From Actinomycetes bacterium (GTDB taxonomy: Bacteria > Actinomycetota > Acidimicrobiia > Acidimicrobiales > JABEUL01), in assembly GCA_021790815.1 (NCBI GenBank), contig JAJYFT010000001.1, forward strand, positions 27,777 to 91,776: a DNA stretch of 64,000 bases, given 5' to 3'. This document shows, one piece after another, positions 3,076-49,269 of the stretch. Position 1 is the first letter of the stretch; each line of letters begins with the position of its first letter. The notes under the pieces were generated by a model. It had not been told where the DNA came from, did not search any database, and saw nothing but the letters and a program-made list of their open reading frames with translations. The translations under genes were made by a program, and so were the position numbers.

Positions 3076-3078
3076 CTT

Positions 3079-27461: not shown

Positions 27462-27481
27462 TATGACGAGAAAAGAGTAGC

Positions 27482-28426: not shown

Positions 28427-28427
28427 A

Positions 28428-30580: not shown

Positions 30581-30587
30581 TCTGCAA

Positions 30588-32120: not shown

Positions 32121-32185
32121 TTAAAATTCGCGTCTGCTTTTTTGATTACACCTTAACTAACTTGACTCATTAGTATTTGTTAATA

Positions 32186-32210
32186 CTAGATTGAGACACT
32201 AGATTAGACA
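32186..32210. repeat. short tandem direct repeat downstream of the Ehr operon
   Basis: ACTAGATTGAGAC followed directly by ACTAGATTAGAC. It is preceded by the inverted repeat TAGTATT-tgtt-AATACTA (32171..32188). Confidence 0.5.
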
Positions 32211-32293
32211 AACAATTTGATAGCGATGGTTTTAAAATCCAATAATTTAGTGATTACAATAAATTAGAACCACAGATTTGAGAAGTTCTAGGT

Positions 32294-32334
32294 GGGGAAT
32301 TTCAGTTAGCAGGTCTGGGGATTTTCAGTTAGCA
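32294..32334. repeat. two copies of an 18-nt direct repeat, 23-nt period
   Basis: GGGGAATTTCAGTTAGCA (32294..32311) and GGGGATTTTCAGTTAGCA (32317..32334), each preceded by GGT. Confidence 0.6.
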
Positions 32335-32339
32335 TCACC

Positions 32340-32700
32340 ATGACCTGCAATTTACTTCAACTCGAGGTGTGAATCTAGATCATGAACAATTTCAAACAGA
32401 CTTTGCTGTTCGTCCGATTTTGCCTAATGAGAGTGATTCTTTTAATGAGGTGCTTAGAACTTCTCACTGGCTTGATAGTGGTCTTGTTGGTGAGGCCATG
32501 CGCTATGTAGTAATAGAGAATGAGTAGAGGTGGCCACTTGCAGGTTTTGGTTCTTCTGGGCTTTAAGTTAAGCTCCTGCAATGAGCTTACCAATTGGAGT
32601 GGCTCCTAGTTATATAGGCATTTACACTACACAACTAAAAGCCAACTGTTATGTATCCGTGAGAAACGAGGCGGGATCATAGGTAATTCATCTTTCTAGA
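32340..32700 (+). pseudogene. decayed DUF4338-like gene fragment (frameshift plus in-frame stops)
   Basis: Plus-strand translation gives FAVRPILPNESDSFNEVLRTSHWLDSGLVGEAMRYVVIENE*RWPLAGFGSSGL. After a frameshift it gives GFKLSSCNELTNWSGS*...IIGNSSF*. This tracks the DUF4338 pattern I recall (VRPI...W..LM..HYLG...LVG..LRY......PLALLGF..AAWK...RD.WIGW....NN.RFLILP). Confidence 0.45.
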
Positions 32701-33023
32701 CATATCGTTTAGAAACTCCCAAAAGAAAGACCTTTTTCGCTCTTACTCCTCTCAGCGGTGATCTAAGTCTCTTCAATTTTGCATTAAATGACTGAATGAT
32801 GTTTTGAACAATCTTTTCATACAAACATCAAATTTCCTTTTTTCCTATCCAATAGGTTTACTGTTTTCATAACAGTCTAAAAACATCATTGAAAGTTCAG
32901 TATTTTGCAGGAGCAACGCTCAAATTTATACTCAACTTTTCAAAACCTTCGATTTCTCAAGTTTAGAAGTTTTCTTTACGTACACTTTCCTAAACCGTTG
33001 CGAAAAGTAGTTGGTTCGTGAAT

Positions 33024-33404
33024 CTATCTTTTAATACCTGGAGCACTTTCCTGATTTATGTCGTAAGAACTTCCAAAATCCATACTATTTAGCTCTATTA
33101 ACAACTGAGAGAACTCTTTTAAAGATGACGACAGAATATTTTTTGATACCGCTAAAAGATCAAAAATCTTACTGTCAACGACAGAATAGTAGACGGTAGA
33201 ACCAACTTTTCTAGTTTGAAGTATATTTGCCTTTCGAAGAATCGCAAGTTGATGTGATAGATGGGACGCTTCTATGCCAACTTTTGGAATTAACTCGCTT
33301 ACGGAAAATTCACCTTCTTGCAACACTTCAAGTATCCTTACGCGAGCGGGGTGTGCAAGAGTCTTAAAAAAATCTGCCTTGACCTGGTATATCGGCAAAG
33401 TCAC
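33024..33404 (-). CDS. ArsR/SmtB family transcriptional regulator (Rv0081-like)
   Basis: 126 aa, GTG start. KADFFKTLAHPARVRILEVLQEGEFSVSELIPKVGIEASHLSHQLAILRKANIL is a winged HTH of the ArsR type. The N-terminal block closely resembles what I recall of M. tuberculosis Rv0081 (KAEFFKTLAHPARIRILELL). Confidence 0.85.
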   Translation of the reverse strand: MTLPIYQVKADFFKTLAHPARVRILEVLQEGEFSVSELIPKVGIEASHLSHQLAILRKANILQTRKVGSTVYYSVVDSKIFDLLAVSKNILSSSLKEFSQLLIELNSMDFGSSYDINQESAPGIKR

Positions 33405-33702
33405 ATCAACACCATATCAGCAATCTATGACTCAAATTTGTATTTTGGAAAATACTTATAAGTGCACAACACATGCCTTTAATTTTAACATTTGAACGCT
33501 CTAGAAGTTTTCAATTAATAATGGTTATTTTCACTTCTATTTAATATTAAAATTATTTGCTATGCGACTTTAACTTCTTTCAAATAAACTCATTCAACTT
33601 AGGTCAAAATCACAGATAAGTGTAGGGTGCCTAGCATTTGAACCGACGCCTTGTCGTTTTCGAAAGCAAGACCGGTTTTAATGAATATTTCTCTATGGCT
33701 AC

Positions 33703-36474
33703 TCAGCCAGCTTTTTTAATCGAAACATAGATTGGCCGATCAACTGGAGCAGGCTGCCACTCCATAGGTGCATACCTAAGATGGCCGTATCCGCCTGCCA
33801 TATTTAACCATTTAACCATTCCAGGTTCAACTTCATTTGATCCGTCATGATTCTTAAACATGTGAGAGTCCCAACCATTGTAGATTGTTAGACCACTCGG
33901 ACGTTGAGAACTTGAAAGTTTCACTCTTACCTTATACTCTCCAACGTCATTAGATACCTCAATAAAGTCATTATCACTTATACCTAGTTCTTTTGCATCA
34001 TTTGGGTGCATGACTGCATGAGGTTCACCTCTATGGGTCTCTAACAACCACTTATTTCCCATATTCATTGCGTGAATTGACCACCTGTTATGACCGCCTG
34101 ACATTTTGAAGTAGTGATCGCCACCCATTAGAGGTGGAGACTTATGCACTGGGATATCTTCTCCAGCATCAAAAAACCAGTCATGTTCTATTAAAAATTG
34201 TGCTCTTCTAGTTAACGTCGGATAAGGTGTACCTCTCTCAATATGGTCACGAAATGGAGAGTGTGTTTCATTTTCTGGAAATGGCGAGGACTGTCCTTTA
34301 GCCATTGGCGAAATGCCCCATTCTTTGAACTTTATCCATCCATCTTTTCTTAGAGTTTCAAGTGTAGTAGCTTCTGGAAGCGTACCCGAATAAGCAGTGT
34401 CTCTCACCATCTCATTTCCAACGTCTTCATAGTTAAGTAAGTAACCATTTAATGTAAAGTTATCCCATAGCTTCGCATATGACTTGGAAATTTCTTGGCC
34501 AAACAGATCCTTCCCTTCATCAAACTTTTCAAGACCTCTCTCTGCTGCCACTTGCGATATCTTAAGTGATAGCGCTGCAAAAATCTCCCACTCATCTTTT
34601 GCCTCGCCAGGAGGTTCTGCTGCCTTATCGCTTAGCTGAAGAATTAACATAGATGGACTCGGCAGGTGAAAGTTAACCTTTTCGTAGTGCTGAGCTGCTG
34701 GAAGAAGAATGTCTGAGTTAAGACCGGTAACCGACATTCTCACGTCTACTGTAACGATAAGCTTAAGCTTGTTAAAAAGTGAGTCAATGACTACCCTTCG
34801 TCCACCTCTTGTTCTTCTAAGCATATTGCTTCCACATTCAATCAGCACTCTTAGATTTGTTTCAGGCCCAGGTTTTACTAAGCCGTCATACCAACCCTTC
34901 CCAATTGCTTCGTTTAGATAGTCATCAAAACTCTTTATCATCTTAGGATCATTAAAAGTTTTATTGTTCCAACGCTCCCGGTGTCCCTCGTGGAAGTACC
35001 ACAAGAAAAATGCGGGGAACATCGCTCTTCCACCGCTAGCAGCCATCTGCCTCCAGAGTTCAATGCTAGCTAAGACTTCATCCAGAGAAGGATCCTGATC
35101 CATCATTGCTTTTTCAACTTCTGCCATTGAGGTAAAAACATCATCAGCGCCTGCTACTCCAGGTCTCTCCTTTACCATCGTAGAAGTCTGTCCATCAAAA
35201 AGTCCTATTGCCCAGCAGTTTATCCCTGTACCTTTCTTGCCCCAATTTCCCGATATGCCAAGCAATAGATTCATCGTTCTTTGATACAGATCGGAGTGGT
35301 AGGCTTTGCAAGCTCCCATACCCATGAGAATCTTTGTTTTTTTGGTGGCAACTTTCCTGCTAAGTTGTCTTAAAAGGTCAGGATTCACCGTAGTGATGCT
35401 TTGAGTCATTTCGGGCGTGTACTCTTCATTAAGTGTTCTCTTAATCTTCTCATATAGTGGCTCAACTTCAACCTCTGAACCATCGATAAGCTTAACTTTA
35501 TAAGATCCAGTTAACTCTGCAACTTTAGAAGTTAACAGTTCAGTTTTGCTCGCCTCTTTTAACTCAAAACCAGAATTTAATTTAACTAAATGATAAAAAA
35601 GTTCCTTATCACCACCTTCTCTTAATTCAGACTCTCTCAAAAAAGTCCCTCTGTCTTTTCTGATCAAAAGGCTTAAGTCGGTCTGCGTCTTAATGAAATC
35701 TTCATCAGCTAGTCCCTCTTCTAAAATTACCTGACACATCGAAAGAGCAAGTGCTGGATCCGAACCCCATTCAACTGGAACATGATAGTCAACATGAGAA
35801 TGCGAAGGAGAAACGTCAGGTGAAAACAGTACGATCTCTCCACCATGATACCTTGACTCACTTAGATAATGAAAAAATGGTATACACGTATAGGCAGGGT
35901 TAGTGTGCCAGAGTATCAGCAGTTCTGAGTGAAATATATCATCATTAGATCCGATTGGATAAAATCTTCCGAAAGTTAAATGGTGACCAAGCGCAAGGTC
36001 GTTAATGGAGCCATTAATATCTGTTATTACGCCTCCAATTGTTCTCATGAATCTGTGAACAGCTGGAGCTACTACAACTTCAGGTGTACCTTCATGGATT
36101 ATAGATTCTGGCCCATCTTCTTCTATCGCGTCTACTATTGAATTTGCAATCTCACCAAGTGCCTCATCCCAAGTAATTCTCTCCCACTGTCCACTTCCTC
36201 TTTCTCCAACTCTCCTCATTGGGTGCAAGAGCCTGTCTTCACTGTCAAGCTGTTGTGACCATGCTGCACCTTTCTGGCACCCTAAAGGATTCATGTCAGG
36301 CACGCCTTCTTCAAAAGTTGGAAGAGTTCCAGTAACCTCTTCTCTTATGATTTTCCCGTCTTTTACATATACCCTATATGGGCAAGCTCCTGGATAGCAA
36401 TCAACACAGTGTGAACCGTGCGCAACTGAATCAAACTCAATTCGCTTTCTATATGAATCTTCTACTGTAGTCAT
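33703..36474 (-). CDS. molybdopterin oxidoreductase catalytic subunit, NarG/EbdA-like, paralog alpha-2, no Tat signal
   Basis: 923 aa. HCVDCYPGACPYRVYVKDGKIIREE ... MNPLGCQKG (H-x3-C-x4-C-xn-C). It shares many identical blocks with alpha-4. The N-terminus MTTVEDSYRKRIEFDS has no signal. Its ATG overlaps the rSAM stop (ATGA at 36471..36474). Confidence 0.85.
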   Translation of the reverse strand: MTTVEDSYRKRIEFDSVAHGSHCVDCYPGACPYRVYVKDGKIIREEVTGTLPTFEEGVPDMNPLGCQKGAAWSQQLDSEDRLLHPMRRVGERGSGQWERITWDEALGEIANSIVDAIEEDGPESIIHEGTPEVVVAPAVHRFMRTIGGVITDINGSINDLALGHHLTFGRFYPIGSNDDIFHSELLILWHTNPAYTCIPFFHYLSESRYHGGEIVLFSPDVSPSHSHVDYHVPVEWGSDPALALSMCQVILEEGLADEDFIKTQTDLSLLIRKDRGTFLRESELREGGDKELFYHLVKLNSGFELKEASKTELLTSKVAELTGSYKVKLIDGSEVEVEPLYEKIKRTLNEEYTPEMTQSITTVNPDLLRQLSRKVATKKTKILMGMGACKAYHSDLYQRTMNLLLGISGNWGKKGTGINCWAIGLFDGQTSTMVKERPGVAGADDVFTSMAEVEKAMMDQDPSLDEVLASIELWRQMAASGGRAMFPAFFLWYFHEGHRERWNNKTFNDPKMIKSFDDYLNEAIGKGWYDGLVKPGPETNLRVLIECGSNMLRRTRGGRRVVIDSLFNKLKLIVTVDVRMSVTGLNSDILLPAAQHYEKVNFHLPSPSMLILQLSDKAAEPPGEAKDEWEIFAALSLKISQVAAERGLEKFDEGKDLFGQEISKSYAKLWDNFTLNGYLLNYEDVGNEMVRDTAYSGTLPEATTLETLRKDGWIKFKEWGISPMAKGQSSPFPENETHSPFRDHIERGTPYPTLTRRAQFLIEHDWFFDAGEDIPVHKSPPLMGGDHYFKMSGGHNRWSIHAMNMGNKWLLETHRGEPHAVMHPNDAKELGISDNDFIEVSNDVGEYKVRVKLSSSQRPSGLTIYNGWDSHMFKNHDGSNEVEPGMVKWLNMAGGYGHLRYAPMEWQPAPVDRPIYVSIKKAG

Positions 36475-37760
36475 TTCTGCCTCCTTTTGGCTTTAACTTC
36501 TTTACTGAGAGCACTTTCGCTCCCCTTGAGTTCTTTTGAAACTGTACTTACTGGGAGGTTTAACTTAGCAAGCTCAACCATCCGCTTGAAAATAGGACCA
36601 GTATGCACAAAATACTGTTTGAGACCAATGCACAATTCGTGAACACCGTCACGGGCTCCGTTACGACCAACTTCATGAACAATTACATAACTGCTGCCTA
36701 ATTTCTTTCTATCTTTAGGACATCCTCCTCGACACAGATTTAGAAACTCACAAGACAAGCAATCATCACTTAATCTATCTTTCTTTGCATTTCCAAATTC
36801 CTCTTGAAAATCGGACTGAATCATGTCAATTAACTTATCGTTGGAGATATTTCCTAATAGATGCTCGTTGTTTACAAAGTGATCACATGAATACACCGAA
36901 CCATCATGTTCAACAACAAGCGCATTCCCACAAGTCTCTGCATTAATACAAAGACTCGCAGGTTTGTTTGAATGTGCTAACAGTGACTCAACAAAAGCCT
37001 GAACTATGATTGTTTCAACATCGTTTCTTACCCAAATATCAAATACAGTATTTAAAAAGTATCCGTACTGCTCAGGTTTGACTGATTCTTTTTTTAAGCT
37101 ACCATTTGAATCCCGGGCAACTATTGGAAGAAACTGTAACCAATTTGCTCCTAGACTTTTGAAGTAGTTGTATATTTCAGCCGGGTGATCAGCGTTAGTA
37201 GAATTTAAAGTACATAAAATATCAGGATTTATGCCAACTTCTAACAAGTTTTTAAACCCTTTAATTACATCTCGATGCGTTGAATACCCGTTTTTATAAC
37301 GCCTCGAAGCATCGTGTAACAATTTTGGTCCATCTAAACTCAATCCAACCCAGAACTTATTTTCGTAGAGAAACTTACACCACTCGTCATCTAACAAAAC
37401 ACCGTTAGTTTGAATAATATTTACAATCTTTTTCTCTACATCTTGCTCTTCAGCAATTCGTTTTTGAATCTCAAGTACTTCTTTAAAGAACTTAATGCCC
37501 ATTAAAGTTGGCTCACCACCATGCCAAACAAACTGAACTAATTCAAAATCTGAGGATTCAATTACATTTTTTACATAAGAATGCAAAACATCCTTTTGCA
37601 TTCTAAAATGTTCGCCTTTTTTAAAAAGGGATTTTTTTTCTAGGTAATAGCAGTATGTACAGTCCAAGTTGCATATCGGACCGCATGGCTTAACCATAGT
37701 AATAAACTCACGACTTCTGTCCTTTTTAATCTCGTTACTAAGATCTTGTGCCGTGGTCAT
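36471..37760 (-). CDS. radical SAM / SPASM-domain enzyme, anaerobic sulfatase-maturase (anSME)/QhpD-like
   Basis: 429 aa. CNLDCTYCYY radical SAM cluster motif near the N-terminus, GGEPTL, and C-terminal auxiliary-cluster motifs CGNALVVEHDGSVYSCDHF and CLSCEFLNLCRGGCPKDR. Confidence 0.85.
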   Translation of the reverse strand: MTTAQDLSNEIKKDRSREFITMVKPCGPICNLDCTYCYYLEKKSLFKKGEHFRMQKDVLHSYVKNVIESSDFELVQFVWHGGEPTLMGIKFFKEVLEIQKRIAEEQDVEKKIVNIIQTNGVLLDDEWCKFLYENKFWVGLSLDGPKLLHDASRRYKNGYSTHRDVIKGFKNLLEVGINPDILCTLNSTNADHPAEIYNYFKSLGANWLQFLPIVARDSNGSLKKESVKPEQYGYFLNTVFDIWVRNDVETIIVQAFVESLLAHSNKPASLCINAETCGNALVVEHDGSVYSCDHFVNNEHLLGNISNDKLIDMIQSDFQEEFGNAKKDRLSDDCLSCEFLNLCRGGCPKDRKKLGSSYVIVHEVGRNGARDGVHELCIGLKQYFVHTGPIFKRMVELAKLNLPVSTVSKELKGSESALSKEVKAKRRQK

Positions 37761-37771
37761 TTTCTCACCGT

Positions 37772-37870
37772 TTACGTCGCCAATTCTTCAGAATTACAAT
37801 TCTTACTATTTATCAACACCGAGTTGCACTTCTTTCCAGCGAAAACTCCCGTGTAGTAAAAGTCCGTCAT
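37772..37870 (-). CDS. candidate 32-aa Cys-containing peptide upstream of the radical SAM gene
   Basis: Below the ORF-track cutoff. ATG 37870..37868 overlaps the upstream TGA (ATGA). It encodes MTDFYYTGVFAGKKCNSVLINSKNCNSEELAT with a repeated K-x-C-N-S motif. TAA lies 11 nt before the rSAM ATG, with GGTGAG in between. A chance ORF is not excluded. Confidence 0.4.
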   Translation of the reverse strand: MTDFYYTGVFAGKKCNSVLINSKNCNSEELAT

Positions 37871-40302
37871 GTTTTCATTTCTAACTTAACTAAACCTAAC
37901 TTTGAATCTATTTCGTCTCTTTCGGGACAAAAGCTTCCGCCTAGATGCTCTGTAGATAATGATGCTGCAACGTTTGCCACCATAATTGCACGATCAATCG
38001 AATCCCCTTTTGAAAGTGCAGCTAAAAGCGCACCTGTATGAATGTCGCCTGCGCCTGTTGTGTCTACCACAACACTCGTTATTGTCTTTACATGAAACAC
38101 TTTCCCAGAACTGTCGTTATAGTAACATCCGTCATCCCCATGTCTTAATACCACTAGACCATCTTTCTTAATAAACCCAGAAAGTGTTTTTACTTGGTCA
38201 AATGGATCGTCTTGCCCAGTTAGGATATTCGCCTCAGTTTCATTCAGAGTCAGAATGTCAGTATGCTTAAGTGCTTTCCTCAACTCTTCTGTTCCAGGTG
38301 AGATAGGGCCTGGATCAATTACTATCGTACGGTCAATCGAATTATCTTCAATGAAGGATTTAATAGTAGGACCGCTAACGTCATAGAGTAGGTCGTAACC
38401 TGACACATATATAAAGTCTCCACTTCTGACGTGAACTTTCTCCAAGTCACTAGCCAACAGTTTCGATTCAATCCCAGGAGAAGTTATAAAAGTCTTTTCC
38501 CCATCTTTTTCTACAATACCAACGGTAAAACCTGAATCACCTTGTTTCGAAATACCAAGTGGTGCTTCGACCCCTTTAAATTCAAGATCTCGTGCTACAG
38601 TAAGCCCGAAAGGTCCATTCCCAACGTTACCTACGTACTGACTCTTTAGGCCCAACTTACTAGCAGCAGATAGAACGTTGTAGCCACCCCCAGATGATAT
38701 CTGCTTTCCTGTTGCGAATATATCTTTCCCTCTTACTGGCAGCGTGTCAGAATAAAGCAAAACATCTACCAAAATCGATCCCACTACCAACAACCTTGAT
38801 GGGGTGTCTATTTCATTACGCACTTTGCTTCTAAGATATTTTTCAACAGCTTCACTTGCGCCAACTTCACTTGCGCCGACTTCACTCAGGCCAGTCTCTT
38901 CTAGTTGCCTAATTAAAGTATCTGAATTAAAATGCGTTTTTCTCTTTATGATCAAAGACATCACAATATAGACGAAAGAGGAAATTAGAAATGCCACTAC
39001 GAAACCAAAACTTCCACTTCCTATAAATCCTACTGCTAAAGGTCCTTTAAACCAGGGGCACGTAGTCGCAAGAAGTCCAATACTTGAGCCCACAAAAAGT
39101 GCAGCTAGCCCACTCATATTTGCATGGAAGAGATCAGATGAATTCGATAACATATATTGTGTCGTTCGTTTCAAATATCTCTTCAATAAGTAGTCAGCAA
39201 TTACAACTCCACCAAACGCAGCTAGAAAGGCTGCCAAAAGAAGCAGGAAATTTTCAAAATCTTGCGTAATGGATGAACTCACAAATATTAAATAACTCGA
39301 AACTCCAAGTACGATTGCTGCATCAACAAATACAGTGAAAGTTCTTTTAATCGGAACCCTTAAAGCAAGAAGATTAAGTCCCGATGAGTAGCAAGCTAGA
39401 TCAGTTTCTAATATCATGCCTCCGCATGCAGATAGAAATAAAGGTACTGCAAAAAGTAGCGGAACCCCTACCCCTAAAACCGCTACTGGGTTCAAGGTTG
39501 CATCAAGACTGCCGTACTTAGAACTCAATAAATATCCTGCGAGAACTAGAACACTCACAGGGACTGATGATGCAACTACAACTGAAGTAAAGAGTTTCTT
39601 TGAACTTAAACTGCGTGGAAGATACCTGCTGTAGTCGCCAGCTAAATTGATCCAGCTAATTCCCGTTCCAGCCGCAATGATACTTATTGCAATTAATACA
39701 TCATTGAAACTTGATGGCTTAGCATTAGGCAACGAAGTATGTTTTATGAGAATGTAAACAACTACCAACACAGTAAGTAATCCAAAAATATAAGATGCAA
39801 CTTTTTGAAACTTTAAAATTACCCTGTGACCGAAATACCCTAATGCCAACGAAACAGATACTACGACTATTACGCAGATTATTTCACTTGTCTTACTGAC
39901 AGGAATCTTAAATATATCGTTTAAGAGTGCAGATAGCGACCATGCAGCAAGAACTGTTGTGATAGCCTCCCAGCCAAGAATGTTCACCCAACTAACAATT
40001 GTTGGAACAAAGTTTCCCGACTTACCGAACGCAACCTTTGAAGATGTGAGAGTTGGCAAGCCAGAGTTCTTCCCAATGACAGAGACCATCCCAACTAAAA
40101 TGAATGACCCAAACGATCCAATTACTGTAGCTGCGATTGCCTGGGAAAGATTTAGTCCAAGTTGAGCGATTATTACGCCAAAAACTAGTGAAAGTATCCC
40201 AATATTTGCCCCAAACCAAACCCACGCCACAGAACTAATGTTCCCAGCTCTCTCGCTATCTTCTACTATCTCTATACCTTTTATCTCTTTAATCATGGAC
40301 AA
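37867..40302 (-). CDS. fusion protein: NCS1 (purine-cytosine/vitamin permease-like) transporter + PfkB/ribokinase-family kinase
   Basis: 811 aa. Residues ~1-455 are polytopic (about 12 TM, NCS1/CodB-like start ...VAWVWFGANIGILSL). A linker holds SEVGASEVGASE. The C-terminal ~320 aa has PfkB motifs SSGGGYNVLSAASKLG and DTTGAGDIHTGALLAAL. Confidence 0.75.
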   Translation of the reverse strand: MSMIKEIKGIEIVEDSERAGNISSVAWVWFGANIGILSLVFGVIIAQLGLNLSQAIAATVIGSFGSFILVGMVSVIGKNSGLPTLTSSKVAFGKSGNFVPTIVSWVNILGWEAITTVLAAWSLSALLNDIFKIPVSKTSEIICVIVVVSVSLALGYFGHRVILKFQKVASYIFGLLTVLVVVYILIKHTSLPNAKPSSFNDVLIAISIIAAGTGISWINLAGDYSRYLPRSLSSKKLFTSVVVASSVPVSVLVLAGYLLSSKYGSLDATLNPVAVLGVGVPLLFAVPLFLSACGGMILETDLACYSSGLNLLALRVPIKRTFTVFVDAAIVLGVSSYLIFVSSSITQDFENFLLLLAAFLAAFGGVVIADYLLKRYLKRTTQYMLSNSSDLFHANMSGLAALFVGSSIGLLATTCPWFKGPLAVGFIGSGSFGFVVAFLISSFVYIVMSLIIKRKTHFNSDTLIRQLEETGLSEVGASEVGASEAVEKYLRSKVRNEIDTPSRLLVVGSILVDVLLYSDTLPVRGKDIFATGKQISSGGGYNVLSAASKLGLKSQYVGNVGNGPFGLTVARDLEFKGVEAPLGISKQGDSGFTVGIVEKDGEKTFITSPGIESKLLASDLEKVHVRSGDFIYVSGYDLLYDVSGPTIKSFIEDNSIDRTIVIDPGPISPGTEELRKALKHTDILTLNETEANILTGQDDPFDQVKTLSGFIKKDGLVVLRHGDDGCYYNDSSGKVFHVKTITSVVVDTTGAGDIHTGALLAALSKGDSIDRAIMVANVAASLSTEHLGGSFCPERDEIDSKLGLVKLEMKT
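38851..38890. repeat. 15-bp in-frame tandem repeat in the inter-domain linker
   Basis: TTCACTTGCGCCAAC / TTCACTTGCGCCGAC / TTCACTCAGG... encodes (SEVGA)x2 SE on the minus strand. Confidence 0.8.
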
Positions 40303-40331
40303 AGTCTACCTAAGTTTAACGAACTCTTTTA

Positions 40332-41519
40332 TCAAACTTCATCCAATATATAAAGCATCCCATTTGGATCTGACGCAGCAAGCGCGCCTGTTACTAAATG
40401 ATTTCCAACGTAGTTTGAACTATCACTCTGCGGAATAGCTAAAGATGGCGAGTAAGCTAAAATCATCGCCTGATCTAGAAACTCCCATAACGCGTCAATT
40501 ATTTCATTCGTATCTGGATCCGCAGGGTTAAGGTTCATATTTGGTAAAGGAATTCCAGTTGCTTCATCTAAGAACCAAGTCGGATGAGAAGCTAACATGG
40601 GTCCAGATTCCGCCATTCCATAGAGTGTGAGCGCTTGGCCAACGAATCCTGAAATCTCTCTTCTTAAATCAGGAGAGAATACTCCTTCAACTCCAATTAC
40701 CGCTGTTTTGAACGTTGATGGTCTTCCCTTTCGCCCTAGTGACAGGATATGTGATTCCGCCGTTTCAATCGGGAGAATCAACCAACCTAAAGATGGATCT
40801 TTGAAGTTCTCAACAAAGTGATCTTGAGTATCACTAAGTGTGTAGACACTCTTTGAATACAAAGCTGACACCAACGAAGTAAAACCCTGCCACGTGCCGG
40901 GAGAATAAGTACTAAGCCAGCCACTTCCTTCGCTTTGAGAGAAAAATGCTGCAAATGAAAGTCCTGAAGCAAGCAGCGATCTATTTGAATGCCAAGCATC
41001 TCCAAACTTGCCACTAAAACAGATATGCGGGAACCTGAGTTTTCCAATATTGATTAACCCGTCCTCACTGCTTTGACTTTCATTACCCACAATTTCATCC
41101 AGGCTCACAACTTTTCCTGCATCAAACCCTGACCCTAACGAACCTAGATCGTCAGTTAAAACTAGAGAGGGATTAATCTGGTTAGCTTTATAAGCCTCGT
41201 TCTTAGGGTAGAGATAGACATTACAGTTCGACTCTACTGCTCCTAGAGCAAGGATCGCACCCTGAGGAGTTGCACCGATTACAATTGCAACTTTTCCGTT
41301 TTCACTTGCTGCCGAGTTTATATAACATTTGACTTTTTCGACGAGATCCCGGACCTCTTTATACGTATAATTGACGCCTTGACCTCGTAGTGCAATCTGA
41401 TCACTATTTATCCATCTATCAACACCAAGTTCAATAATTGAATAAGGTGGAACTCCGATAACTCGACTAAGTCCTTCCGGCCAATACCAACTTGGGGTAG
41501 TAGCAATTGTTTTTGGCAT
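40332..41519 (-). CDS. ANL (acyl/aryl-CoA synthetase)-like N-domain protein with degenerate motifs, C-terminal subdomain absent
   Basis: 395 aa. YTYKEVRDLVEKV substrate-paragraph-like start. The P-loop position reads FSGKFGDAWHS instead of SGTTGxPKG. LYGMAESGP stands for YGxTE. The protein ends ...TGALAASDPNGMLYILDEV, where the hinge and C-domain would begin. Confidence 0.55.
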   Translation of the reverse strand: MPKTIATTPSWYWPEGLSRVIGVPPYSIIELGVDRWINSDQIALRGQGVNYTYKEVRDLVEKVKCYINSAASENGKVAIVIGATPQGAILALGAVESNCNVYLYPKNEAYKANQINPSLVLTDDLGSLGSGFDAGKVVSLDEIVGNESQSSEDGLINIGKLRFPHICFSGKFGDAWHSNRSLLASGLSFAAFFSQSEGSGWLSTYSPGTWQGFTSLVSALYSKSVYTLSDTQDHFVENFKDPSLGWLILPIETAESHILSLGRKGRPSTFKTAVIGVEGVFSPDLRREISGFVGQALTLYGMAESGPMLASHPTWFLDEATGIPLPNMNLNPADPDTNEIIDALWEFLDQAMILAYSPSLAIPQSDSSNYVGNHLVTGALAASDPNGMLYILDEV

Positions 41520-41530
41520 TTAATACCTCC

Positions 41531-42067
41531 TTATTTCGATATCGCTTGTGACCATGCAAGTGTAAATACTGCAATTAACGCAATACTCAATTCAGCTTTT
41601 AGCAACAGGTCCATTTTCTTGATGCTTTTGCGCCTTCTCAGTTTCATCTCTTCTAATGATAACTCTGCATCTTTTAACGAAGCTCTTTTATGAGAATTAG
41701 GATGAAGTTTCACACCCATTAGCATTACAACTACAACCAGACCTACCCAACAAACTGCACCAATTGCACCTTGAAGATAGGTAACTCCCTTTATGCCAAG
41801 ACTTCCAGAGCGAAAAAACTCATGGTCAGATAGGCCAAGCAAAATCCAGCTAATCCCAATAACACTCAAACTAGATAAAGCAACCCACTTATACTTCTCA
41901 CCCATCTTTTCACACAAAACAGCTGTTTGCTGTGGAGCTAATCCCTTTTGAAGAGGTTTCCAAACTATTGCCATAATAAGTGCACCGCCAATGTAAATAG
42001 CCCAAGAGGCGCTAAAAAGAAAATTAAATATAGTTTGAGCGCTACTGGATATTGCTATAACTTTCAC
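41531..42067 (-). CDS. 4-TM membrane protein, paralog B (CopD/DUF-like)
   Basis: 178 aa. Same topology and GG-containing first helix (SASWAIYIGGALIMA) as the upstream paralog, but without the His. Basic amphipathic insert before the last TM. Confidence 0.55.
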   Translation of the reverse strand: MKVIAISSSAQTIFNFLFSASWAIYIGGALIMAIVWKPLQKGLAPQQTAVLCEKMGEKYKWVALSSLSVIGISWILLGLSDHEFFRSGSLGIKGVTYLQGAIGAVCWVGLVVVVMLMGVKLHPNSHKRASLKDAELSLEEMKLRRRKSIKKMDLLLKAELSIALIAVFTLAWSQAISK

Positions 42068-42600
42068 TAAAGTATACCGTTTCCGTAAACCATTGAGGCA
42101 CCGAGCAGTACAATAAACAGAGCAACTCCAAGATCTATTCTTGTAATTAGCGACACTTTTTTAGCAGCCTGGATTTGTGCTTCTAAGTTTGCCTGAACGC
42201 CTGCCCCTCCTCCTTTAGAAGAAGCCTTCTGATTTAGTCTCGGCCTATATATAAATGTAATAATTGCACCATTTATAACCAATACCAACCATAAAAACAT
42301 CATTGCAAACAGTGTTCTACCATAGGTTGTCGTAAAAAATTGTGTCCCACTAACTACACTCTGATCCTGGATACCAAAAAACAGTAGCATGCCACTTATG
42401 GGGAATACAACAAGTGCACTCCAAACTAAAATCAAAAATTTATCAGCTGATTTTTGACCTATTACTTGCGCCTGGGCAGGAGGAATAAACTTTTGTGCTG
42501 GGCCCATTATGAACTCCATGGCAACCGATCCTCCCAGATACACTGCAACTGCTAAAAGGTGCAAATAGGAAGCCACAATTCTAATCCAAGTCGCTGTCAT
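42067..42600 (-). CDS. 4-TM membrane protein, paralog A (CopD/DUF-like, His in TM1)
   Basis: 177 aa. First helix IVASYLHLLAVAVYLGGSVAM resembles CopD/HemJ-type helices. Its stop overlaps the start of paralog B. Confidence 0.55.
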   Translation of the reverse strand: MTATWIRIVASYLHLLAVAVYLGGSVAMEFIMGPAQKFIPPAQAQVIGQKSADKFLILVWSALVVFPISGMLLFFGIQDQSVVSGTQFFTTTYGRTLFAMMFLWLVLVINGAIITFIYRPRLNQKASSKGGGAGVQANLEAQIQAAKKVSLITRIDLGVALFIVLLGASMVYGNGIL

Positions 42601-42609
42601 AATTATTTT

Positions 42610-44088
42610 CTATCCTTTCTTATAGGGATCAACACTTCCTTCGTGGAAGTCATTAAAGTGGCTTAGAATCTGCGGTGTAATTGCGTAGCCGTCTCCATTT
42701 TCTGTGTAGTACTGACGATAAAAATCAACATCAATGTGATGCACTTGAGCTGAAATTTTTGCTCTGACAGGGTTTATATGTGAAGGTGCACAGCCATACT
42801 TATTAACTATGTATTCGACCGTTTTTGTAGCAGCCTCAATTGCCCAATCTGAGACGTATGACTTAGGATTTTTTAGTATTTCTTCTAAAACATCTTTTTT
42901 GTACGGACCGCCAACGTGATCCAAAAAGTTGTCTTCCCTTGAGAATGCTGACCCTTTCTTGTTCTTAAGGTCCACTACATATTCAACTGCTGACCGTGCA
43001 TCTTTGAACTTAGTGCAAGGCACCATGACTGATTCTTTAAAACCTTCTAAACCTTGACAAGTTTGAGTGGTCGAAGGATTGGTCTTTGGGTCCCTAGTCA
43101 AAAATGAAAAACCTAAGCCTTGAGTAATCTCTGGATAGGCACCGAGAACTAAATCATCTGCATAGCTTCCCGTCATCCAAGCTCCTAGCCCAAGTGCTTC
43201 AGAGGCAAGGCGAATATTTTGAACTATCGCGCCAACTTGACCAGCGTGAAGCATAAGTGCAAGTTCGTCAAACGCTGGGATTGGAAATCCAACCTCTAAA
43301 AACCCTGGCTTAATCCATTCTTGACAACCTGCAGGTTCATTGGTGTCAGGATCCAAAAGGTAAAATCCAGACCATTCGTAAGAGATTAAAAGTTGGTTGA
43401 ACCACTCAACCCCAACATCACCAATAGGCAAGAACCATGTACTTCCAGGCCGATTTAGATTATACTGACCAGGACCAGTTGCATTTACTATCTTGGTTCC
43501 TTCGGGCGATGAAGGCCAGCTAATTTTTGGTCGTTCTTTTGAAACTACAACTTTGCCAGAGCGGTAGTAATCAAGAATCTTATGAAAATCCTCTTCACCT
43601 TTTATCTCAACAAGACTTAAATCTTCGCTTGGAGGACGATAGATTGACACACCGTCATCATTTATTATAAATAGTTCAACACTCAAATCATTCGAAGAGG
43701 ATGGAACTGTTCGTCCAACGTACGATAAAAGACCTGAAAGTGCTCCATTAACAGGAATATCACCGAGTATTAGCCCATTAGGCCCTAGCGCAGCCCAACA
43801 AATTAAAGCCTCCTCAAGTTCACTTAAGGGTACTGGTTCTCTAGTCGAAACATAGTTAAGCGGACCTTTTGCCTGCGTTGCAGGTTTTTCACTTGACCAT
43901 TCGAAGTTCTCTTGCTCTCCTGACTCAATTTGATAACCTAGCCCGACTCGACGAGTTCTAAGAGTAGTAAGTAGATTGAAAAAACTACCAGTTCCATTAA
44001 ACGCTTTCTTAATCTGGCTAAGTTGAGACTCTGTTATCTCATCAGAGACACTGTCATTTGATAACGAGTCTTTTTTCTTGAAAATCAT
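42610..44088 (-). CDS. large nitroreductase-superfamily (SagB/ThcOx-like) flavoprotein
   Basis: 492 aa. LRTRRVG ... PLSELEEALICWAALGPNG and HAGQVGAIVQNIRLASEALGLGAWMTG fit nitroreductase-fold signatures. Its start overlaps the stop of alpha-3. Confidence 0.55.
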   Translation of the reverse strand: MIFKKKDSLSNDSVSDEITESQLSQIKKAFNGTGSFFNLLTTLRTRRVGLGYQIESGEQENFEWSSEKPATQAKGPLNYVSTREPVPLSELEEALICWAALGPNGLILGDIPVNGALSGLLSYVGRTVPSSSNDLSVELFIINDDGVSIYRPPSEDLSLVEIKGEEDFHKILDYYRSGKVVVSKERPKISWPSSPEGTKIVNATGPGQYNLNRPGSTWFLPIGDVGVEWFNQLLISYEWSGFYLLDPDTNEPAGCQEWIKPGFLEVGFPIPAFDELALMLHAGQVGAIVQNIRLASEALGLGAWMTGSYADDLVLGAYPEITQGLGFSFLTRDPKTNPSTTQTCQGLEGFKESVMVPCTKFKDARSAVEYVVDLKNKKGSAFSREDNFLDHVGGPYKKDVLEEILKNPKSYVSDWAIEAATKTVEYIVNKYGCAPSHINPVRAKISAQVHHIDVDFYRQYYTENGDGYAITPQILSHFNDFHEGSVDPYKKG

Positions 44089-46838
44089 CAGGCTTCCTCT
44101 CTAACTTTTTCAATACTTACCGCAATTGCCCTGTCGACAGGGACAGGCTGCCATCCAAATGGCAAATAACGTAGATGACCGTACTTGCCAACTAAGTGAA
44201 GCCATTTCACCATCCCTGGTTCAACTTCATTTGCGCCTTGCCAGTCTTTAAAAGCATGCGGCTCAAATCCATTGTAGACAATTAATTGCTTGGGTCTAAC
44301 CCTAGCTGAAACTCGAACAACTCCTTTAAATCCACCGTGATCATTAAATACCCTAGCCTCGTCGGTATCTCCAATCCCGCAAGCTTTCGCATCACTTACA
44401 CTCATTACTATGATTGGCTGGCCTCTGTGAGTTCCGAGTAAGTCTTTATTCCCCATGCTGACTGCGTGGACAGTCCAACGGGAGTGTCCACTCGTTAGAA
44501 CAAAATCTCCAGTTCCCCCCATGGAAGGATTTTCTTTGTGTCTTGGCAGGTGTTCGTCAGCGTCAATAAACCACTGGTGGTCAATGTAAAACTGGGCTCT
44601 TCTTGTAAGAGTTGGGAATGGAAGTAGCTTTTCAGTATGCCAGGTGAATGCAGTCATTACCTTATCTTTTTTAACGTCAGTTGCAACAGCTAGTCCTGGA
44701 GCGAACATCCCAAGAGAAGTGAATCGAAGACCGCCAACACTTTTAAGCGTTTCAATAGAGCTACCAATTGGCAAAGTTCCTGCATCTGCTGAATCACGAA
44801 TCCATTCGTCGATTATTGCTTCTTCATTTGAAAATGCACCATCTAAATCAAACTGTTCTCTTAGATTATCTAAACGCCTCTCTTGTCGACGTCCATCCAT
44901 AAACTCTACGACACCTTTTTCTTTAGCAATTTTGCTTACCCTTTCACAAAGCAGAGTAAATATTTCCCACTCCGTTTTTGATTCACCTCTCGGTTTTACT
45001 GCTTCTTCACTGTATTGGACTCTTAAGGTATGCGTTATTGGGTACTGTACATTAGGTCTTTCATACTGCATCGCGGCAGGCAAGACAATGTCTGCATTTA
45101 GTGCAGTTGAAGACATTCTGATATCAATTGCAACTATTTTCTCAAGCTTAGGCCAGAGCTTTTCGATTAATATTTTTCTTCCTCCACGAGCTCTTCTGAT
45201 TGGATTTGTCCCAACTGCAAAGAATAGCTTGGGTGGATTATTAGACTGGGGCCGTGAAATTCCTCCCCACCAACCTCGCCTGATCGCGTCATCAAAGTAA
45301 GCACTAAACGGCTTTGTCATTGCAGGATCTGACCAAGATTGGTTGTTCCAAGAATCTTTGTACCCTGCGTGATAGTAGTTAAAAAAGAGCGGGGGTGAGG
45401 AAGTACCCTTTGTTGTTGAAAGCTGAAGCATCTGATTACCAAGCATTTCGTCAGTTGCATCTGGTTCCTTCTGTCTCATCTGATCCATCCCCATGTCTAT
45501 GCCATCCAACAATCTTGCAGTCTCTTCGACACCCTTTTTCGTCTTCATTGAAAACAGCATGTAACCATCTAGTCCCGCTAGTGCGAGACCTTGGATGCCC
45601 GTACCAGGTTTGCCCCAGTTTCCACTTAGGCCTAGTATCAAACACATTGCCCTCTCCATAAGGTCGCCGTGGTAGTACTTGGGAGCATTAAATCCCTCAA
45701 GTATTTTTGTCTTGCTCGTCGAAACCATATTAGCTAGCGTTCTGATGGAATCCGGTGAGACTCCACAGATCTTAGAAGCCATTTCAGGTGAGTAATCAGC
45801 TACTCGTCTTCTTAAAGAATCAAATACAGTCTCAACTTCAACCTCTTTGCCATCTTGAAGTTTTACTGAAGAAATTGCTGAAAGTTCAGGAACTATGTCA
45901 CCTAGATTGAGCGTAGCTTTTGGAGCTAAAACTAATTCCTTATCTTTATTCATGAAGTAAAACTGCTCTTCACTGCCGCCCTTAACGACATCACGTTCTC
46001 TTAAAAATCTATCTGTATCTTTACGGATCAGGAGTGGTAGGTCAGTTTGGGTTAAAACAAATGATTTGTCAAACTTTTCTTCCTCAATTAGAACGTAAGC
46101 GATAGATAGAGCTAGTGCAGCATCAGTTCCAGGAGTAATCGGAAAGTAAAAATCAGAGTTCACTGCAGATGCATTGAAATCAGGCGCAATTGTCACGACT
46201 CTTGCACCATTATATCTTGCCTCAGTAATAAAGTGATGATAAGGGATCGACGTATAAGCTGGATTTGAATGCCAAAGCAAAAGCAGATCTGATTTAAAAG
46301 TATCATCAACTGTACTAGCACATGCAAACTTTCCAAAGGTGATGTGATGACCAATTGGAAGGTCATTTACTAGCCCTTGAGCATCTAAGGTTATTGCACC
46401 GATTAGAGAAGCAAATCGCAGAAAGGAAAGTTGGCCCATCAACCCACCTTCAACACTTTCCTCAAAGACTATTGATTCTGGACCATATTCGTCAATTGTT
46501 TCTACTATTGAAGTTGCAATTTCGTCAAGTGCTTCATCCCAAGTGATCCTTTCGAACGCACCATCGCCTCTTTCCTTTGTTCGGCGCAAGGGATAAAGAA
46601 CCCTATCTTCACTTTTTAGCTGTTGCGACCAAGCGCTTCCTTTTTGACAACCTAATGGATTTAGATCTGGAACGCCTTTCTCAATTAGATCAATCGAGCC
46701 GGACTGCTCTTCGAATAACACTTCACCGTTGCGAGTATACACACGATAAGAGCAATTTGCTAGACAGTTAAGACAGTGGGTTCCCCATGTAGTGCGGTCC
46801 CATGTCCACTTCGACCTATATTGATCGACACTTTCCAT
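44088..46838 (-). CDS. molybdopterin oxidoreductase catalytic subunit, NarG/EbdA-like, paralog alpha-3, no Tat signal
   Basis: 916 aa. HCLNCLANCSYRVYTRNGEVLFEEQSG ... LNPLGCQKG (H-x3-C-x3-C). Closest in motif style to alpha-1. The N-terminus MESVDQYRSKWTWDRT has no signal. Confidence 0.85.
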   Translation of the reverse strand: MESVDQYRSKWTWDRTTWGTHCLNCLANCSYRVYTRNGEVLFEEQSGSIDLIEKGVPDLNPLGCQKGSAWSQQLKSEDRVLYPLRRTKERGDGAFERITWDEALDEIATSIVETIDEYGPESIVFEESVEGGLMGQLSFLRFASLIGAITLDAQGLVNDLPIGHHITFGKFACASTVDDTFKSDLLLLWHSNPAYTSIPYHHFITEARYNGARVVTIAPDFNASAVNSDFYFPITPGTDAALALSIAYVLIEEEKFDKSFVLTQTDLPLLIRKDTDRFLRERDVVKGGSEEQFYFMNKDKELVLAPKATLNLGDIVPELSAISSVKLQDGKEVEVETVFDSLRRRVADYSPEMASKICGVSPDSIRTLANMVSTSKTKILEGFNAPKYYHGDLMERAMCLILGLSGNWGKPGTGIQGLALAGLDGYMLFSMKTKKGVEETARLLDGIDMGMDQMRQKEPDATDEMLGNQMLQLSTTKGTSSPPLFFNYYHAGYKDSWNNQSWSDPAMTKPFSAYFDDAIRRGWWGGISRPQSNNPPKLFFAVGTNPIRRARGGRKILIEKLWPKLEKIVAIDIRMSSTALNADIVLPAAMQYERPNVQYPITHTLRVQYSEEAVKPRGESKTEWEIFTLLCERVSKIAKEKGVVEFMDGRRQERRLDNLREQFDLDGAFSNEEAIIDEWIRDSADAGTLPIGSSIETLKSVGGLRFTSLGMFAPGLAVATDVKKDKVMTAFTWHTEKLLPFPTLTRRAQFYIDHQWFIDADEHLPRHKENPSMGGTGDFVLTSGHSRWTVHAVSMGNKDLLGTHRGQPIIVMSVSDAKACGIGDTDEARVFNDHGGFKGVVRVSARVRPKQLIVYNGFEPHAFKDWQGANEVEPGMVKWLHLVGKYGHLRYLPFGWQPVPVDRAIAVSIEKVREEA

Positions 46839-46851
46839 GTAAAACCTTTCA

Positions 46852-47508
46852 TTAGCCGAGAAGCGACGTTATATATTTAAAATCTGCTTCGACAAATGCA
46901 TTAAGTCTGGTAAGGCCCCAATTGAAGGGGTCAGCAGGATTAAGTGCGACTGCCTTGTCAACTATATTCGGTATTTTATTAACTAAATTCTGCTCTAAAA
47001 AGTCGCGCTGAGCTCGTCTGTAGGAACCTTTAAGTCTTGGAGAAGGAGACGCAGCTTCTTTAAAACACACGTACTGCATAAAATCAAGCGCAGTTGATAG
47101 ATGATCGAGTTTTTTGTCCTCTCCAACCCCTAAGCCAAAGTACTCATAGTCACGTTTTAGCTGTGCAATTACATTTTCATCATCACCAGCTAATAGAAGT
47201 GAGCCAGCACCTAATTCATCACCAAAAACTCTTACATACTCGCCCTTGTAGTCATCGAACGTTGAGCCTTCTTTGATAGAAGGAACACCAGTATCAAATT
47301 CAAAGGGTAGCAAAGAGGCTGACTCTTTCATCTCTTTATCAAGGTGATCATTGATTGCCTTGTCATACTGCTCCTGACACACTGGCTGGAAGAAACTTCC
47401 AAGAACCATATAAACTGCAGATCTTGCTGTAGTTTCGTTCTCTTCAACTTCAAGCGGACCACCGTCTTGAGTCTTAATCTCTAATCCTGATAGTGAAAAT
47501 GTAAACAT
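46852..47508 (-). CDS. TorD/NarJ/EbdD-like assembly chaperone (delta subunit)
   Basis: 218 aa. EYVRVFG and DHLSTALDFMQY match the family blocks (E..rLF, DHi..eLeFm..L). Position is after the beta subunit. Confidence 0.7.
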   Translation of the reverse strand: MFTFSLSGLEIKTQDGGPLEVEENETTARSAVYMVLGSFFQPVCQEQYDKAINDHLDKEMKESASLLPFEFDTGVPSIKEGSTFDDYKGEYVRVFGDELGAGSLLLAGDDENVIAQLKRDYEYFGLGVGEDKKLDHLSTALDFMQYVCFKEAASPSPRLKGSYRRAQRDFLEQNLVNKIPNIVDKAVALNPADPFNWGLTRLNAFVEADFKYITSLLG

Positions 47509-47519
47509 ATTCTCTCCTT

Positions 47520-48632: not shown

Positions 48633-48653
48633 TTGTTTATTGCTCCTTTTGAC

Positions 48654-49259: not shown

Positions 49260-49269
49260 TCTTATTTCC

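Follow-up and report, generated by a model that had tools for sequence, protein, structure and literature searches.

We analysed a window of 64,000 nucleotides from an Acidimicrobiales bacterium (GenBank assembly GCA_021790815.1, contig JAJYFT010000001.1, positions 27,777 to 91,776 of the forward strand; all coordinates below are those of the window). On its minus strand, a single gene encodes an NCS1-type permease joined by a linker to a PfkB-family kinase. The product is very probably a riboside importer-kinase. We further hypothesize, at a probability of roughly 50%, that it takes up alpha-ribazole, or a related riboside of a lower ligand, and phosphorylates it at the 5' position. The informative context is found in other genomes, in the form of cobalamin (B12) biosynthesis genes and cobalamin riboswitches. 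An earlier note on this DNA had considered a salvage function plausible; this was right in kind, and the pairing of NCS1 and PfkB proteins is conserved, but the cobalamin context in other genomes had been missed. Lower-ligand salvage via NCS1 and PfkB proteins would be a new, partly fused candidate system that has not been described previously. Full-text literature searches found nothing that links NCS1 or PfkB proteins to cobalamin, riboswitch or ribazole.

The proposed mechanism is as follows. The permease, an NCS1 carrier of the LeuT fold that is presumably cation-coupled, would import alpha-ribazole or a similar alpha-riboside whose base serves as lower ligand of a cobamide; alternatively, the base might enter first and be ribosylated afterwards, a route considered for CblT (PMC6167548). 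At the inner face of the membrane, the tethered YegV-like kinase would phosphorylate the 5'-OH with ATP/Mg, using Asp751 as catalytic base, the anion hole of the DTTGAGD motif, and the NxxE motif. The 5'-phosphate would be trapped in the cell, and alpha-ribazole-5'-phosphate would go to CobS for nucleotide-loop assembly of cobalamin. Fusion of both activities would give 1:1 stoichiometry and proximity.

The fusion gene and its product

The open reading frame (ORF) extends over 37867..40302 on the minus strand and comprises 811 codons if counted from TTG. The likely start codon is ATG at 40296, yielding 809 amino acids (aa) and a stop codon; the in-frame TTG at 40302 is less probable. The features of the gene are listed below, where A1 denotes an alignment of 31 homologous fusion sequences.

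37867..40296, minus strand: NCS1-linker-PfkB fusion gene, entire, 809 aa and stop codon (Pfam, ORF inspection)
38941..40296, minus strand: NCS1 permease domain, aa 1-452 (PF02133, hydropathy, AlphaFold2 and Foldseek)
Within the permease domain: 12 transmembrane helices, at approximately aa 26-44, 53-71, 100-124, 139-157, 166-184, 200-218, 239-257, 271-289, 321-339, 349-367, 392-413 and 432-450
38797..38940, minus strand: cytoplasmic linker, aa ~453-500 (~48 residues), opening with KRK after helix 12 (AlphaFold2, alignment A1)
38850..38886, minus strand: in-frame tandem repeat (Tandem Repeats Finder: period 15, 2.5 copies, 95% matches, score 67)
37870..38796, minus strand: PfkB-family kinase domain of the YegV-like subfamily, aa 501-809 (PF00294, PDB, Foldseek, YegV comparison)
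38677..38691, minus strand: GGGYN, aa 536-540, sugar-hydroxyl-binding Gly-Gly...Asn element (G536, G537, G538 and N540 invariant in A1)
38233..38244, minus strand: NETE (NxxE), aa 685-688, coordination of Mg/phosphate (E688 invariant in A1; aligns with NETE of RbsK)
38044..38064, minus strand: DTTGAGD, aa 745-751, anion hole and catalytic base Asp751 (aligns with DTIAAGD of RbsK and DTIGAGD of YegV)

That one polypeptide combines an NCS1-type permease and a PfkB kinase had been stated in the earlier note, and this is confirmed: the 809-aa ORF is uninterrupted, and both Pfam domains lie far above their gathering scores (PF02133 Transp_cyt_pur, aa 11-413, E 8e-42, 144 bits, cut-off 23.5; PF00294 PfkB, aa 501-790, E 5.6e-42, 144.6 bits, cut-off 25.8). 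NCBIfam models match the protein below threshold only, namely ribokinase TIGR02152 (125 bits vs 299.65), ncs1 TIGR00800 (110.8 bits, 6e-32, vs a cut-off of 353), CytX (89 vs 310) and NF008353 (92 vs 341). Judged by these scores, neither half of the fusion fits a curated equivalog. Database names of homologous proteins are all generic ('PfkB family carbohydrate kinase', 'sugar kinase'). AlphaFold2 modelling of the full-length fusion from alignment A1 gave a mean predicted local distance difference test score (pLDDT) of 82.6, with both domains confident. Foldseek searches with this model returned kinase matches only; the permease half was modelled by itself.

Independent assemblies display the same unbroken reading frame. 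GCA_027410975.1 (locus L095) has the same gene order and encodes an identical 809-aa protein, with 11 nucleotide differences that are all synonymous. GCA_027458815.1 (locus L001, protein P0001) differs at 3 nucleotides, two of them synonymous and one causing V241F. A Logan contig (L096), covering the first 773 nt of the gene only, displays 9 differences, all synonymous. The near-exclusively synonymous divergence points to purifying selection on the entire chain. The possibility of a frameshift artefact, raised in the earlier note, can thus be put aside. In three loci of the fused clade (L036, L037, L038) the halves do lie in different frames with overlapping open frames, representing either true secondary splits or frameshift errors in metagenome-assembled genomes (MAGs), so the junction is breakable by real or artefactual frameshift; given the identical unbroken ORF in three or four independent assemblies, with divergence that is almost wholly synonymous, and ~25 further fused ORFs from different studies, the probability that assembly has joined two separate genes here is negligible.

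A search for further proteins of this domain architecture, proposed in the earlier note, shows that NCS1-PfkB fusions exist elsewhere but are rare. A word-indexed protein search returned ~31 full-length fusions (40-48% identity, 804-887 aa) from Acidimicrobiales/Actinomycetota MAGs, and among 1.84 billion representatives clustered at 50% identity, searched exhaustively, only about five were fused (P0001, P0005 and P0021, plus P0031 and P0272, which are partial). By tblastn with each half against GTDB species representatives, the single-ORF fusion is present at ~25 loci in Acidimicrobiia/Actinomycetota MAGs. Split and adjacent genes occur in the order NCS1->PfkB in Actinomycetota MAGs, Sulfobacillus/Bacillota and Ktedonobacteraceae, in the order PfkB->NCS1 in Micrococcales and Dormibacterota, and as a divergent pair in Acidimicrobiaceae. 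As the halves are neighbouring separate genes in many lineages, the functional pairing is conserved and the fusion derived. A phylogeny of each half had also been suggested; the neighbour-joining (NJ) trees of the N- and C-terminal domains are congruent and place the fusions in one clade. Within this clade, the neighbours of the window protein in both domain trees are the CobT-adjacent fusions of L010 and L014 together with L002 and L025.

The permease half

Hydropathy analysis gives 12 segments with a positive-inside pattern, in agreement with the 12 transmembrane helices noticed before. Loops rich in Lys/Arg are located at the N-terminus, between helices 2-3, 4-5, 6-7 and 10-11, and after helix 12 (KRK). 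This pattern indicates a permease with both termini inside, and hence a cytoplasmic kinase. The AlphaFold2 model of the permease half (pLDDT 85.3, predicted template-modelling (TM) score 0.87) displays its best Foldseek matches with Mhp1 (4d1a/2jln/2x79) and CodB (7qoa) at E 1.7e-12 to 4e-10 and TM scores of 0.69-0.83, and these two outrank all other LeuT-fold carriers. A sequence search of the PDB with the permease half found nothing. Passing PF02133 and missing the TIGR00800 cut-off, the permease half is, by sequence, a divergent NCS1 member. Its transport is presumably coupled to a cation, as in NCS1 carriers of nucleobase-like substrates. With Mhp1 (hydantoin) and CodB (cytosine) it shares membership in PF02133, the 12 helices and the best structural match; it differs from them in an identity of just 16-20%, in the additional C-terminal enzyme domain, and in its predicted cargo, which would be a riboside and not a base.

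The linker

AlphaFold2 predicts the linker to be disordered (pLDDT <50 at aa 456-496). In the homologues, the linker ranges from ~30 to >100 residues of unrelated sequence (columns ~560-665 of alignment A1). The 15-bp repeat encodes SEVGA-SEVGA-SE(A) at aa ~471-483. The earlier note had the whole linker encoded by this repeat (SEVGA x2): the repeat is present, in 2.5 copies, and accounts for only part of the ~48-aa linker. A variable repeat length, also suggested there, is not borne out, as the three assemblies spanning the repeat all agree in copy number; in L095 it consists of two perfect copies, and the partial L096 contig stops short of it. Since the linkers of the homologues are unrelated in sequence and length, the SEVGA repeat is a local trait of a generally unconstrained tether.

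The covalent link had further been compared with group translocation. Uptake followed by phosphorylation, and thus trapping, is indeed the natural reading. The arrangement is not like that of the phosphotransferase system (PTS), however: Pfam finds no PTS domains in the fusion protein, the tether is predicted to be disordered, and there is no sign of translocation being powered by phosphoryl transfer.

The kinase half

The kinase is complete, as had been claimed: on the alignment, GGGYN, NETE and DTTGAGD are all intact, with no loss-of-function substitution in the catalytic motifs, and D745, T746, G748, A749, G750 and D751 are invariant in A1. The PDB sequence search with this half returned ribokinases (best E 3.6e-22), and Foldseek returned ribokinase, ketohexokinase and sulfofructose kinase YihV (TMt 0.77-0.86). 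Compared with E. coli RbsK, the kinase half displays 28% identity (E 6e-16, 63 bits). It retains Asp16 (Asp511), Gly41-Gly42, Asn46, NxxE and the catalytic Asp255 (Asp751) of RbsK, and has lost Asn14 (Leu509), Lys43 (deleted) and Glu143 (Ser641; Ala in most homologues). In the ribokinase-ribose complex 1RKD, the lost residues touch the anomeric side of ribose. Their loss would fit a C1-substituted riboside rather than free ribose.

Similarity to E. coli YegV is higher (117 bits, E 3e-35, 29% identity). Both share SGY, GDxG...VExDGE(R/K)TF, DTxGAGDxH and the one-residue deletion at the position of Lys43, and the kinase half clusters with YegV-like kinases in a tree rooted on RbsK. We define the YegV-like subfamily here for the purpose of this report; there is no curated family model for the group. 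The former label 'ribokinase/PfkB' should be amended accordingly: with the equivalog cut-offs missed and Asn14, Lys43 and Glu143 not kept, ribokinase proper is ruled out in favour of a YegV-like PfkB kinase. Fold (TMt ~0.8), GG, NxxE, DTxxAGD and catalytic Asp are common to RbsK and the window kinase; the latter differs in scoring 125 vs 299.65 bits on the equivalog, in the loss of ribose residues, and in being tethered to the membrane.

Cobalamin genes and riboswitches around relatives

Cobalamin biosynthesis (cob) genes (CobN, CbiA/CobQ, CbiJ, CbiG, CbiX, CobT, CobU, CobS and methylases, counted within the fetched flanks) are present at 14 of the 27 loci of the fused clade and at 4 of the 11 close split loci, which amounts to 18/38 vs 0/44 for distant homologues (Fisher p 5.7e-8). 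By Pfam, the fusion P0021 (L010) is divergent from CobT (DBI_PRT) and adjoins CobO, CbiA, CbiD and precorrin methylases, and the fusion P0032 (L012) lies within a CbiC/CbiG/CbiJ/CobN cluster. In Bacillota (L049 and L051), an NCS1-PfkB pair adjoins CbiA, CobU, CbiB, CobD and CobQ. At L037 the pair is flanked by a PduX-like kinase on one side and a BluB-CobT fusion on the other. Most informative is L050 (Ktedonobacteraceae), with the order His_Phos_1 (CobC-type phosphatase)-CobS-CobU-NCS1-PfkB with gaps <=35 nt; this is a nucleotide-loop-assembly operon, with the NCS1-PfkB pair where cobT usually sits.

A riboswitch lies directly upstream at 7 loci. At five of them, each from a different species (L042, L044, L045, L047, L048), a cobalamin riboswitch (RF00174, 100-109 bits) directly precedes an NCS1->PfkB bicistron on the same strand, with candidate GTG start codons 0-40 nt past the aptamer; these bicistrons are otherwise isolated, without cob neighbours. 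At L043 a gene for a BtuF-like binding protein comes first after the riboswitch, followed by NCS1 and PfkB. At L017, an adenosylcobalamin riboswitch (RF01482, 51.7 bits, gathering score 50) is located 281 nt upstream of the fusion, with no intervening gene.

A riboswitch at L037 (8672-8795, plus strand) was rejected as direct control, the minus-strand PduX-like gene lying between it and the NCS1 gene. It points antisense into this PduX-like GHMP kinase gene (8979-9905, minus strand), which may reflect a long leader or antisense transcription under riboswitch control. The idea that the fused clade shares a third, conserved partner was rejected: P0002 and P0003 are surrounded by housekeeping genes, and no universal neighbour exists. 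The neighbour clusters c15, c16, c29, c30, c9, c34, c20, c31, c58 and c26 were judged unrelated housekeeping genes by reading their sequences.

Weighing the proposed substrate

Several observations weigh against alpha-ribazole or a related lower-ligand riboside as the substrate, which is assigned wholly from genomic context. The window itself contains no riboswitch (Rfam at gathering score over 64 kb, and at E<=1 over 33000-53500) and no cob genes within its 64 kb, and B12 context is missing at four fused loci (window, L002, L005, L008). At L010, L014 and L037 the fusion has CobT as a neighbour, so that a simple replacement of CobT is not given there. The count of 18/38 loci is based on clustering the flanking ORFs of 80-odd loci, where most cob calls rest on few Pfam-annotated cluster members, and the domain trees are NJ trees without bootstrap support. 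The bacterial NCS1 proteins characterised so far transport bases or hydantoins and not ribosides, and the riboside carriers Fui1 and Nrt1 are fungal; no characterised PfkB protein is known to act as alpha-ribazole kinase. Given its position in the fused clade, the window copy, itself without riboswitch and cob neighbours, would keep the role of its clade mates.

The logic of the pathway speaks for the proposal: other kinase steps of cobamide assembly are covered by CobU and PduX, and alpha-ribazole kinase (CblS) is the sole other known kinase activity in this assembly.

A rather unlikely alternative, which nevertheless has to be considered first, is a generic module for salvage or catabolism of ribosides or nucleosides, similar to YegTUV and without a specific B12 role in this organism. 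The 5'-phosphate would enter central or nucleotide metabolism, and in relatives an enzyme similar to ADP-ribosylglycohydrolase (ARH) would then free ribose-5-phosphate. The closeness of the kinase to E. coli YegV is consistent with this, as is the lack of a B12 signal at the window copy. An ARH gene (PF03747) adjoins related split pairs at 16 loci, and the cultured Ktedonosporobacter rubrisoli (L097, 7487-10987) has an operon GntR/UTRA-ARH-NCS1-PfkB, with the regulator arranged as in yegW-yegTUV. The ARH-associated loci also include L039-L041, L070, L074 and L090. Fusions of an N-terminal ADP-ribosylglycohydrolase with a YegV-like kinase also exist (P0325, P0349, P0385, P0400). The L050 pair in its cob context and the L097 pair in its ARH context are 73% (NCS1) and 65% (PfkB) identical; the same transporter and kinase thus probably handle the same substrate in both settings, and this shared substrate need not be B12-specific, which is a further point against the proposal of a lower-ligand riboside. 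Finally, a clade of Acidimicrobiaceae adjoins thymidine kinase, as described below.

On the other hand, the window protein belongs to the cob-rich fused clade and lies outside the ARH and thymidine kinase clades. No PF03747 gene is located next to the window gene or at any fused locus. A general catabolic module would also hardly explain why the genes are controlled by riboswitches and placed within cob operons.

In the Acidimicrobiaceae clade (L055, L060, L065, L067, L068, L078), a divergent YegV-like kinase and NCS1 permease are found beside thymidine kinase, TrmO-like and pst genes, which suggests a nucleoside-salvage flavour for this branch.

Another reading, which we consider improbable, is salvage of a different B12 precursor, either nicotinate/nicotinamide riboside, for nicotinate mononucleotide (NaMN) as ribosyl-phosphate donor of CobT, or aminoimidazole riboside. 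Aminoimidazole ribotide (AIR) is the precursor of anaerobic benzimidazole synthesis. The divergent adjacency to cobT in L010 and L014 and the BluB-CobT neighbour in L037 would be in line with such a role; NCS1 includes the yeast nicotinamide-riboside carrier Nrt1, and a PfkB aminoimidazole-riboside kinase, STM4066, occurs in Salmonella. However, housekeeping pathways supply both NaMN and AIR, and it would presumably be unusual for a B12 riboswitch to control the salvage of either. At L050 the pair stands with cobC-cobS-cobU and without cobT, and structures of aminoimidazole-riboside kinase are absent from the 45 PDB matches at E<=1e-5.

A B12-repressed bypass appears more doubtful still. Here, import and phosphorylation of (deoxy)nucleosides under B12 scarcity would offset, for example, a class II ribonucleotide reductase, comparable to riboswitch-controlled metE and nrdEF. 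The five isolated bicistrons behind a riboswitch, without cob neighbours, and the existence of the thymidine-kinase-adjacent clade speak for this. Genes of B12-independent isozymes, however, do not normally reside inside cob operons, whereas the NCS1-PfkB pair does; PfkB kinases are not known to act as deoxynucleoside kinases; and the conserved Asp511, corresponding to the 2'/3'-OH ligand Asp16 of RbsK, would favour a ribo- over a deoxyribo-substrate.

A possible link to yegTUV

For E. coli yegTUV, with its repressor GgaR/YegW, function and substrate are unknown (PMC10819704). The kinase described here is YegV-like, and the GntR/UTRA-ARH-transporter-kinase operons of relatives mirror the logic of yegW-yegTUV. 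Differences are that YegT is a carrier of the major facilitator superfamily (MFS; NHS-type) and not NCS1, that the fused clade lacks the ARH (YegU-like) partner, and that yegTUV has no known B12 link.

ARH enzymes are specific for the alpha-anomer and act on ribosyl linkages of 5'-phosphorylated ribose. Alpha-ribazole-5'-phosphate is such an alpha-anomeric compound, which would fit the idea of alpha-ribosides, although this is speculative. As a tentative and on balance rather improbable proposal, a YegV-like kinase, a transporter (NCS1, or the MFS carrier YegT) and a YegU-like ARH may constitute a widespread module for alpha-ribosides released from cobamides, comprising alpha-ribazole and purinyl or benzimidazolyl analogues. 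In cob and riboswitch settings the pair or fusion would feed CobS, and where an ARH is present, it would split the 5'-phosphate at its alpha-N-glycosidic bond into base and ribose-5-phosphate for recycling. The identity between L050 and L097 and the ARH-PfkB fusions support this proposal. If true, it would give the orphan yegTUV a function and the bacterial ARH-like proteins their first small-molecule substrate class. Kinship with YegV and the alternation of cob and ARH partners make the function of yegTUV directly testable.

The molybdenum-enzyme neighbourhood of the window

In the window, the fusion gene stands within a cluster of minus-strand genes for ethylbenzene-dehydrogenase-like molybdenum (Mo) enzymes (Pfam/NCBIfam).

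49270-52086, minus strand: ethylbenzene-dehydrogenase-like alpha subunit (first)
48654-49259, minus strand: gamma subunit (EB_dh)
47520-48632, minus strand: beta subunit
46852-47508, minus strand: delta subunit (chaperone)
44088-46838, minus strand: second alpha subunit
36471-37760, minus strand: radical SAM/SPASM gene similar to anaerobic sulfatase-maturating enzymes, after the fusion gene
33703-36474, minus strand: third alpha subunit

The second alpha subunit is followed, in this order, by genes for a 492-aa protein, a CopD-like membrane protein, a 178-aa protein, a 395-aa weakly AMP-binding-like protein, and the fusion. On the same strand, the fusion gene is separated by 29 nt from the upstream gene and by 106 nt from the downstream radical SAM gene. 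A promoter and terminator scan over 33000-52800 carries little information: shuffled sequence gave more promoter-like sites than the window did, and the fusion gene is flanked by no terminator.

The earlier note had placed the fusion in a Mo-enzyme operon. This membership is not conserved. Syntenic Mo clusters were located via homologues of the 395-aa protein. In one of them (L093, GCA_021777355.1), the order is alpha-gamma-beta-delta-alpha2-519aa-CopD-176aa-401aa, leading straight to the radical SAM gene, and the fusion is missing; the same genome encodes the closest fusion homologue, P0002, on another contig amid housekeeping genes (L002). In the other (L094), the core order is kept and the fusion is missing as well. 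No Mo-cluster genes occur at any other fused locus examined. The placement is therefore lineage-specific and says little on function.

A role of the protein in the surrounding Mo-enzyme/radical-SAM cluster, such as import and activation of a substrate or cofactor precursor for the ethylbenzene-dehydrogenase-like enzymes, is accordingly very improbable. The shared strand, the tight spacing and the lack of a convincing internal promoter or terminator would favour such a role. So would the diverged fusion of L008 (43% identity), which likewise precedes a radical SAM gene, with overlapping stop and start codons and 45% identity to that of the window. However, the L008 fusion is preceded by 270 nt of non-coding sequence, and in the genome of L093 the Mo cluster does without the fusion while a copy is kept elsewhere. 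The L008 radical SAM homologue (2795-4066) carries a SEC-C motif, and the L093 Mo cluster ends with another homologue.

The cluster (33703-52086, minus strand) contains three alpha subunits of type II dimethyl sulfoxide reductases, yet one gamma, one beta and one delta subunit. The alpha subunits match their family models from position ~45-66 onward and may be without the twin-arginine translocation (Tat) signal region. The radical SAM gene passes the anaerobic sulfatase maturase equivalog TIGR03942 (405.6 vs trusted 349.45 bits), with no sulfatase near. Adjoining the cluster, at 25461-32120 on the plus strand, is a module similar to membrane-bound energy-converting hydrogenase or complex I (Proton_antipo_M, Complex1_30kDa/49kDa, faint NiFeSe_Hases). 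At L001 (16973-17869), a DDE_3/HTH transposase is located between an ArsR-like regulator and a 510-aa Complex1_49kDa/NiFe-hydrogenase-like gene; the window (~32120-33024) appears to lack this transposase (offset ~1.1 kb), which would be an insertion-sequence polymorphism between near-identical strains.

Comparison with known systems

Trapping of cargo by phosphorylation is known from other transport systems. In nicotinamide-riboside uptake by PnuC/NadR and in the PTS, cytoplasmic phosphorylation of the cargo makes uptake effectively irreversible, as proposed here. PnuC and NadR are separate proteins and unrelated. The PTS phosphorylates its cargo during translocation, via relay domains fed by phosphoenolpyruvate (EI/HPr/EII), whereas the window encodes an ATP-type PfkB kinase tethered to a secondary carrier. 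The fusion thus provides a clean natural case of a secondary carrier covalently tethered to a cargo-trapping kinase, which may be useful for studies of the coupling between transport and metabolism.

The closest functional parallel is CblT/CblS. CblS is ThiM-like. Neither Pfam nor NCBIfam gives a CblS- or ThiM-type family match in the fusion, and the kinase half displays no similarity to E. coli ThiM, compared here in place of CblS. In some Firmicutes, cobT is replaced by cblTS, which encode a transporter and a kinase for alpha-ribazole (PMC6461909, PMC5064896, PMC6167548), and CblTS is largely limited to Firmicutes, with 3.2% of species (PMC6461909). As in Listeria innocua, Geobacillus and Lactobacillus coryniformis, a transporter and a kinase for one small molecule are found in or near cob clusters under B12 regulation. 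CblT/CblS supplies CobS with alpha-ribazole-5'-phosphate by a route alternative to CobT, and the same function is proposed for the fusion. The fusion differs in its parts, a 12-helix NCS1 permease and a PfkB/YegV-like kinase, in its single chain, and in its frequent co-occurrence with CobT. Set apart by its family matches, the fusion or pair is quite plausibly a non-homologous functional analogue of CblT/CblS, with its activity predicted from the context described above.

Exchange of cobamide lower ligands shapes microbial communities. If confirmed, the NCS1-PfkB proteins would represent an unrelated second system for alpha-ribazole salvage, with one fused gene in Acidimicrobiia and two separate genes in other Actinomycetota, Ktedonobacteria and Bacillota, and genome-based predictions of dependence on exogenous lower ligands would change.

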